Shown here: piece by piece, positions 57,057 through 57,367 of the stretch | How the letters are laid out: each line of letters begins with the position of its first letter | Numbering within the stretch: the stretch's first letter is position 1 | IMG/VR virus record: IMGVR_UViG_3300034069_002176 | Length of the DNA stretch: 64,000 nt | From: a virus | Strand: one strand, 5' to 3' | Position numbers and translations under genes: made by a program | Notes under the pieces: model-generated | Told to the model about the DNA's origin: nothing | Databases searched by the model: none | Seen by the model: the letters and a program-made list of their open reading frames with translations, nothing else

Positions 57057-57085
57057 TTGACTGAGAAATAGAAGCGGGTTATACT
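57057..57085 (+). promoter_or_regulatory. Near-consensus SigA promoter, leaderless start
   Basis: TTGACT-N17-TATACT, 6 nt before ATG 57092. Confidence 0.75.
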
Positions 57086-57091
57086 GTAGTG

Positions 57092-57367
57092 ATGAGCACT
57101 GTAACCAAGTTCCCCTTCACCCTTCACTCGTCCGATCAGGAAGTCCTCGACAAGACAGTGCGTAAGGTGCTGTCCATCGAGACAGATAAGACCTCGGTAA
57201 CCTTCAAGCCCATCGAAGCACTTGCTGACGGCGATGGAATTCGTATCCAGCGCCGTCGTGTTGTCATCACGAGTACCGATGAGAAGACTCTCGATACTAT
57301 CCAACACCTTGATTTCCCGAGCGCTGTGTCTGTTCTCGGAAATGGCGTCGCTGTTACTGAGAAGTAA
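57092..57367 (+). CDS. Ribosomal protein S10/NusE-like protein lacking the long ribosome-binding loop
   Basis: [28 protein letters not shown] aligns with S10 [57 protein letters not shown] aligns with [33 protein letters not shown]. Confidence 0.75.
   Translation: [91 protein letters not shown]

Follow-up and report, generated by a model that had tools for sequence, protein, structure and literature searches.

Ribosomal protein S10, also known as NusE, is the textbook link between the ribosome and RNA polymerase. In the laboratory, its two roles were split by the deletion of a loop. The relevant passages of three papers (PMC5224480, PMC8249722 and PMC2800207), all of which cite Luo 2008, state that the hairpin (loop) of S10 is required for insertion into the 30S subunit but not for antitermination, and that loop-deleted S10 keeps NusB binding and its activity in transcription, whereas its activity in translation is lost. 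In these engineered proteins, referred to as NusE-delta-loop or S10-delta-loop, residues 46-67 of the Escherichia coli protein, or their equivalents in Aquifex aeolicus and Thermotoga maritima, are replaced by serine; structures are available as 3D3B, 3R2C, 2KVQ and 2MEW, of which 2MEW is the loop-deleted T. maritima NusE (PMC5224480). They are the closest known objects to the protein described here, P0001, which is encoded in a stretch of 64,000 nucleotides (nt) from the IMG/VR virus record IMGVR_UViG_3300034069_002176 (the whole stretch is called the window in the following). The gene (57092..57367, + strand, ATG to TAA) encodes 91 amino acids (aa). P0001 is a divergent but genuine homolog, a diverged paralog, of S10/NusE, and the deletion known from the laboratory thus also occurs in nature, in a conserved and separately transcribed family of genes that very large mobile elements carry. 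An earlier reading of the window made from its letters only (the sequence-only reading) had given the background on the dispensable loop correctly.

The homology is carried by profile comparisons. When the ten-member family of P0001 was aligned with 30 cellular S10 sequences gathered from whole genomes, hhalign returned a probability of 94.8%, an E-value of 5e-8 and 82 aligned columns. A profile built from six family sequences yielded E-values below 0.005 in the PDB only for S10 chains, with 5e-6 being the best, followed by weaker matches to a designed helical repeat (0.0078), ExpZ (0.017) and integrin I-domains (about 0.6). This profile matched normal S10 chains over two separate stretches, 1-43 and 63-100, and only the engineered loop-deleted chains 2MEW, 2KVQ, 3D3B/C and 3R2C/D over a single one. 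The best match in a phmmer search of P0001 against PDB sequences was 2mew_A (E 0.0018), with residues 7-81 being contiguously aligned to residues 7-78. A hidden Markov model (HMM) of cellular S10, run over 1,307 six-frame open reading frames (ORFs) from the window and its flanks, identified P0001 alone (E 7e-5, in two pieces), and no canonical S10 was present among these ORFs. The sequence-only reading had described a 91-aa protein resembling both halves of S10, and this description holds.

The divergence from cellular S10 is nevertheless considerable, as the identity of P0001 to any S10 is about 20% and all curated models score it below their cut-offs. Pfam PF00338 reached 14.2 bits (E 0.053, cut-off 21.2) and the S10 equivalog NF001861 of NCBIfam reached 22 bits (E 1.4e-4, cut-off 85), in both cases over the C-terminal third only, and TIGR01049 reached 17.5 bits (cut-off 72.75). 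The Pfam cut-off was likewise passed by none of the six relatives of P0001 that were scanned. As it scores below the curated cut-offs, has no hairpin, departs from the GPIPLP motif of beta2 and lies outside of an S10 operon, P0001 is not classed as ribosomal protein S10.

The most conspicuous difference concerns the hairpin. S10 residues 43-65 (23 aa) correspond to residues 44-48 (LADGD) of P0001; hhalign left 18 S10 residues, located after beta2 ends and before beta3 starts, without a counterpart, and a separate joint MAFFT alignment produced the same 18-residue gap at S10 positions of about 46-63. That the ribosome-binding loop is naturally deleted, as claimed beforehand, is therefore borne out by two alignments. 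The hairpin is absent in all ten family members, which possess a short turn rich in D, G and E instead. In P0001 this turn between beta2 and beta3 comprises codons 45-50 (ADGDGI; 57224..57241, + strand), which stand in place of an S10 hairpin of about 22 residues, as delimited by the alignment gap and by the strands predicted by AlphaFold2 (AF2) at residues 34-45 and 51-61.

Without homologs, AF2 gave a poor model of P0001 (pLDDT 65). With the family alignment, the pLDDT rose to 78; the elements of this model follow one another as b1-a1-b2-b3-a2-b4, and beta2 turns tightly into beta3 at residues 46-50. In a Foldseek search of the PDB with this model, the first 50 matches were all uS10, and the tightest fits were to loop-deleted NusE bound to NusB, BoxA or the C-terminal domain (CTD) of NusG, at a root-mean-square deviation (rmsd) of 2.7-3.4 Å and a target TM score of at most 0.76. 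A geometric all-against-all search (VIA), which works independently of Foldseek, placed uS10 at ranks 1-3 (Z 11.1, 10.9 and 10.2). PF00338 was the sole family listed among the structural neighbours of P0001 in the ESM Atlas, and the model had no match in the "unnamed" clusters of this resource. Most of the AFDB clusters returned were uS10-domain entries; PriA, HPPK and unnamed entries appeared a few times at comparable E-values, and none of these cluster matches was a named family without the loop. The viral fold library BFVD contained no S10-like model that could be found and yielded only weak generic matches to the DNA-binding domains of papillomavirus E2 and LANA (E of at least 3e-4). As ferredoxin-like domains score nearly as well as S10, the fold alone would be insufficient to establish S10 identity, which is proven by the profile evidence. 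Taken together, profile and structure searches recovered S10 itself and not just a generic ferredoxin-like fold, the outcome that would have spoken against the sequence-only reading.

P0001 is not a singular case. Five short relatives came from an exhaustive HMMER search of 1.8 billion representatives and four more from a profile search, so that the family consists of about ten sequence clusters of 86-91 aa, which are 31-47% identical to P0001 and all loop-less. Ten positions are invariant in the family. Eight of them fit conserved S10 sites, namely the start methionine and D15, L19, D20, R51, R55, D74 and V79 of P0001, the latter seven being equivalent to D14, I/L18, D19, R68, R72, D91 and V96 of S10; the remaining two, T34 and S61, lack a conserved S10 counterpart. 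No relatives were found in the cultured-phage collection (tblastn) or in IMG/VR contigs, and a 5-kb region around the gene had no nucleotide match in phage records. The automatic JGI label "ribosomal protein S10", which some relatives carry, misleads, given that the ribosome anchor has been lost. This label is also attached to P0008 (66 aa, from a 6-kb JGI contig). This variant of P0002 lacks about 24 internal residues, which removes beta2 and the beginning of beta3, and may represent either a deletion allele or an error of assembly. Two longer proteins, P0006 (1057 aa) and P0007 (455 aa), were excluded from the family, as each of them matched in seven stretches, confined to the beta3-alpha2 region (E of about 1e-5). 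Both look like repeat proteins, with strands rich in R and Q.

The gene is preceded by its own promoter, as the sequence-only reading had recognized. A -35 hexamer TTGACT (57057..57062, + strand) and a -10 hexamer TATACT (57080..57085, + strand) are separated by a spacer of 17 nt and match the consensus at 10 of 12 positions; within the surrounding 2 kb this is the sole sigma-70-like site. As the -10 box sits exactly 6 nt before the ATG, the mRNA is predicted to be leaderless and to start at or next to A57092. The same arrangement, TTGAC(A/T) or TTGTCT, 17-18 nt, TAnnnT, exactly 6 nt and ATG, was found at all seven homologous loci for which upstream DNA was available. Since the gene is flanked on both sides by genes of the opposite strand, it represents a monocistronic unit. 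Family scans of the neighbours called no ribosomal-protein genes within about 10 kb on either side, and an S10 operon context (rpsJ-rplC-rplD...) is not present around the gene, which agrees with its earlier description as stand-alone.

What P0001 might do can be judged from the S10 surfaces that it has kept or lost. By mean BLOSUM score, alpha1 is the most S10-like segment (1.71), followed by beta3 (1.39), beta4 (1.35), alpha2 (0.70), beta1 (0.39) and beta2 (0.13). The outward basic residues of beta1, R7, R9 and K11 in S10, are P, T and H in P0001 and non-basic in most family members. The net charge of the family ranges from -5 to +3, compared with +1 to +7 for S10 cores, and is near zero for P0001. 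As the hairpin is gone, the basic residues of beta1 are replaced and the net charge is near zero, P0001 is most likely not a part of the ribosome. A NusG-directed or other off-ribosome role appears plausible. Tentatively, and with the understanding that it falls short of being probable, we favour the idea that P0001 is an off-ribosome mimic of S10 that acts via NusG or the transcription elongation complex. It is ranked first, ahead of an exapted S10 fold, a ribosome-directed role, a role with NusB and boxA and, lastly, the lack of any function, because the anchor is lost, the determinants for NusB and BoxA are not kept, S10-likeness differs by segment as described and boxA-like motifs occur at chance level in the window.

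The contact of S10 with NusG is well described. Beta4 of the NusG KOW domain pairs with beta4 of S10, F165 of NusG is inserted beside alpha2 of S10, and Rho is bound via the same NusG face (bioRxiv 10.1101/2020.03.01.971028). Across phyla NusG:S10 is the best-conserved interface, whereas NusB:S10 is lineage-variable (PMC13753749). Soluble P0001 would imitate ribosome-bound S10 toward an extraribosomal partner of S10, the likeliest of which would be the KOW domain of the host NusG. NusG occupied by P0001 would then imitate a trailing ribosome, and the outcome might be that NusG/Rho-dependent termination is damped, or that transcription and translation are uncoupled, on the transcripts of the element. 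The most specific form of this idea, in which the loop-less S10 occupies the NusG KOW domain as a soluble "ribosome mimic" and thereby blinds the NusG/Rho surveillance of untranslated or foreign transcripts, is possible but rather doubtful. It would be a form of antitermination based on mimicking a ribosomal protein.

Several observations weigh against an action of P0001 through NusG on behalf of a phage. The helix at the NusG pocket, alpha2, resembles that of S10 only moderately, and alpha1, with the highest score, lies on the face for NusB and the 30S subunit and not on the NusG face. The position of S10 A86, presumably the site of nusE71, is occupied by T, A, K or R in the family. The fold of P0001 alone tells nothing about its partners, as in the VIA search unrelated ferredoxin-like domains trailed uS10 closely (Z 9.9 and 9.6). 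Furthermore, most ORFs of the window have no family match and PHROG matches are few, and neither capsid, terminase nor other structural or hallmark genes were seen in about 74 kb (window and flanks). A complex prediction with the family alignment and the C-terminal KOW region (residues 236-300) of NusG from Streptomyces coelicolor, used as a stand-in for the host and run without controls, gave a score of 0.00 and is evidence neither way.

A possible, if likewise doubtful, alternative to the NusG-directed mimic is that the S10 fold was exapted as a stable scaffold for an element-specific protein or RNA partner which is unrelated to Nus factors and to the ribosome. Precedent exists in mL48, a mitochondrial paralog of S10 that has moved to a different site. 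Such an exaptation would fit with the very deep divergence from any S10, with Pfam and NCBIfam scores far under the curated cut-offs, with the loss of known partner-contact residues and with the fact that the conserved gene block around the family is shared with genes of unknown function; in addition, mL48 and other ferredoxin-like proteins follow just behind S10 in geometric terms. It is at odds with the invariant residues of the family, most of which are conserved residues of S10, including the equivalent of R72, which we take to be the site of nusE100. These shared residues suggest that some S10-type surface is still in use, though they could be purely structural.

It appears unlikely that P0001 is directed to the ribosome, where it would take the S10 site on the head of the 30S subunit or disturb late 30S assembly. 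Ribosomes without the S10 hairpin, which extends toward h31/h34 close to the decoding centre, might show altered decoding or termination, which might serve a module with an amber-suppressor tRNA. The gene for such a tRNA (anticodon CTA, tRNA(CUA); 57899..57972, + strand) lies downstream of the S10-like gene at a distance of about 530 nt, an adjacency that had been pointed out earlier, and PTH2-like genes are found around it; ARAGORN assigned the tRNA as tRNA-Pyl and the Rfam tRNA model scored it with 55.6 bits. Virus-encoded bS21 and bL12 do enter host ribosomes (PMC6375957), several S10-invariant residues are retained in P0001, and mutations in the S10 loop alter the susceptibility to tetracycline and tigecycline (PMC8249722), so that the loop communicates with the A-site region. 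On the other hand, all family members lack the very hairpin that inserts S10 into the 30S subunit (PMC5224480), beta1 no longer carries its exposed basic residues, and the near-zero net charge contrasts with the basic S10 cores. S10 is also not among the loosely bound, exchangeable proteins which viruses tend to encode (PMC6375957, without uS10).

Less likely still is the role of a canonical NusE-type factor, which together with host NusB on boxA RNA would nucleate processive antitermination or would titrate NusB away from rrn operons. P0001 would then correspond in nature to NusE-delta-loop, for which NusB binding and full antitermination activity are stated (PMC2800207, PMC8249722). In line with this, the segment closest to S10, alpha1, contributes to the NusB face, with the equivalents of D14 and L18-D19 being invariant and H15 being kept in seven of ten members, and the PIP motif of beta2 survives in part in the family consensus. 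Residues at known contacts are nevertheless changed. P41 and P43 of S10 stack on conserved aromatic residues of NusB (PMC13753749), R16 stacks on U8 of BoxA (PMC3177189) and H15 is also located at the U8 pocket. In P0001 these four positions are E42, L44, E17 and Q16, respectively. Within the family the P43 position is never Pro, the P41 position is Pro in a minority, and the R16 position is Glu, Lys or Gln in nearly all members. Beta2, the NusB-side edge, is the least S10-like segment; its GPIPLP motif reads KPIEAL in P0001, and the last Pro is never retained in the family. Moreover, boxA-like motifs (at most two mismatches) occurred 16 times in the 64-kb window of the contig of about 654 kb, compared with 16.6 expected, although the consensus used was E. 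coli-like and may not be that of the host. In the window, the boxA-like sites which the sequence-only reading had proposed to look for are present at chance level. Its view of an S10 dedicated to transcription stands with regard to S10 identity and the loss of the loop, whereas the canonical role with NusB and BoxA is disfavoured by the changes at P41, P43 and R16.

That P0001 is a decaying remnant of a captured rpsJ or a spurious ORF without function, as its shortness and its failure to reach any curated family threshold might be taken to indicate, is very improbable and largely refuted by conservation, since about ten homologs share a constant length, invariant residues, gene order and, at seven of seven loci, an identical promoter spacing, and since AF2 folds the protein confidently when homologs are supplied.

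The gene order just mentioned extends beyond the S10-like gene. The conserved block consists of a ResIII/DEAD helicase, a DUF2510 gene (with DUF732), a BaxI_1 membrane protein, a membrane protein of 183-200 aa on the opposite strand, the S10-like gene and a convergent DUF6900 gene. It spans 52947-57913 of the window and was found again at two loci with relatives that are about 43-45% identical (L002, 4528-8705; L046, 361-5269). In the window, the upstream neighbour of the S10-like gene is a membrane-like protein of 200 aa (56423..57025, opposite strand), and the stop of the convergent DUF6900 gene (opposite strand) abuts the S10-like gene at 57368. P0002 (45% identical, on a 422-kb JGI contig) is accompanied by genes for a helicase, a DUF2510 protein, a BaxI-like protein, a DUF6900 protein, a PTH2-like protein and a NUDIX protein, and P0012 (43% identical) and P0011 lie in the same gene block on shorter contigs. 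P0005 is located downstream of a DUF2510 gene and P0003 opposite a NUDIX gene. In the P0012 lineage, an ORF of 52-53 codons (L046, 4677-4838; L047, 1550-1705) shares 4 nt with the S10-like gene at the stop of the latter, so that the two might be translationally coupled; this ORF is absent from the window.

The contig with P0001 has a length of 654 kb, relatives are found on contigs of 637 and 422 kb, and the carrier is probably a giant mobile element, a huge phage. The window has a GC content of about 50%. Accessory genes in the window and its flanks include a LytR_cpsA_psr cell-wall ligase homolog (9547-10866, + strand), a Suv3-like DEXQ helicase (15972-17933, + strand) and a protein with a PARP catalytic domain and a WGR domain (47124-48596, + strand), besides genes for thioredoxin-reductase-like, NUDIX, PTH2-like and HSP20 proteins. 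The sole relative of the window helicase in the phage collection was MT835526 (41% identity). For the BaxI-like protein the closest relative was MT835529 (46%), with weaker matches to MT836143 and three cultured-phage records. The matching regions (35-46% identical) are located at 22826-24445 of MT835526.1, 2821-3366 of MT835529.1 and 1632-2309 of MT836143.1. All three scaffolds come from human faeces (Mexico) and bear the unverified label "Bacteriophage sp."; the portions of them that were read contained no S10-like ORF. The TrxB-like gene of the window had only distant matches, to Saprospiraceae and Caryophanon. Among sequencing runs, the DNA occurs in a plant metagenome, probably its source, with small shares in others, and no RNA run was among those listed.

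The leaderless promoter architecture is not restricted to the S10-like gene, as TTGAC(A/T)-N17/18-TAnnnT-N6-ATG also precedes at least three unrelated genes of the window with starts at 5316, 8301 and 27707. The four sites (5281-5316, 8265-8301, 27672-27707 and 57057-57092) are alike in that the distance from the -10 box to the ATG is 6 nt, as at every site examined. Leaderless promoters as well as DUF2510 and DUF732 are linked to actinobacteria. Because of these promoters and the DUF2510/DUF732 neighbours, the findings suggest an actinobacterium-like host.

That S10 should occur naturally in a "separation-of-function" form on giant mobile elements would surprise specialists, and no relevant report on natural loop-less S10, on NusE paralogs or on phage-encoded S10 was found in the open-access full-text literature. 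If P0001 engages NusG, NusB or RNA polymerase, it would represent a new class of phage-encoded elongation modulator that works via ribosomal-protein mimicry, and studies of how transcription and translation are coupled in Actinobacteria-type hosts would gain a tool that is soluble by nature. As a mimic directed at NusG, it would be the first natural case in which the transcription role of S10 resides in a dedicated gene. With another partner, it would be a clear exaptation of a ribosomal-protein fold.

Among known systems, virus-encoded ribosomal proteins are an obvious comparison. They comprise bS21, bL12, bL9, bL31, bL33, bS6, uS9, uS15 and HPF (PMC6375957; huge-phage lists in PMC11748809), with uS10 neither being mentioned in the main text of the former nor listed among the ribosomal proteins of the latter. 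P0001 resembles them in being a homolog of a ribosomal protein, in its probable phage-like carrier and in being apparently under selection. Unlike P0001, which is very divergent and has lost its anchor, those proteins mostly stay close to the host versions and are believed to be incorporated into ribosomes. Phages are also known to target transcription elongation or termination, as lambda N works with Nus factors and Psu of P4 is an anti-Rho factor. With these factors P0001 would share the proposed outcome, i.e., phage transcripts being shielded via Nus factors or Rho. Their fold and logic are wholly unlike those of P0001, for which ribosomal-protein mimicry is the proposed mechanism. Cellular uS10 (rpsJ) is homologous to P0001, with the equivalents of D14, L18-D19, R68, R72, D91 and V96 being invariant; P0001 differs from it by the missing hairpin, by scores below all curated cut-offs, by its location outside of an S10 operon and on a giant mobile element, and by being less basic.

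The engineered NusE-delta-loop proteins come closest. They share the globular fold with P0001, their hairpin was removed at the same place, they are similar in size (82-87 aa for the constructs, 91 aa for P0001), and among PDB chains they alone can be aligned from end to end without interruption and show the lowest rmsd. P0001 differs from the constructs, to which it is about 20-24% identical, in that it is natural, in the turn, which in the family consists of 5-8 residues rich in D, G and E and not of a single Ser, and in lacking the NusB-stacking prolines and the BoxA-contacting Arg, along with its near-neutral charge. The loop that was cut out in the laboratory in order to separate transcription from translation is thus missing from a natural protein family as well.

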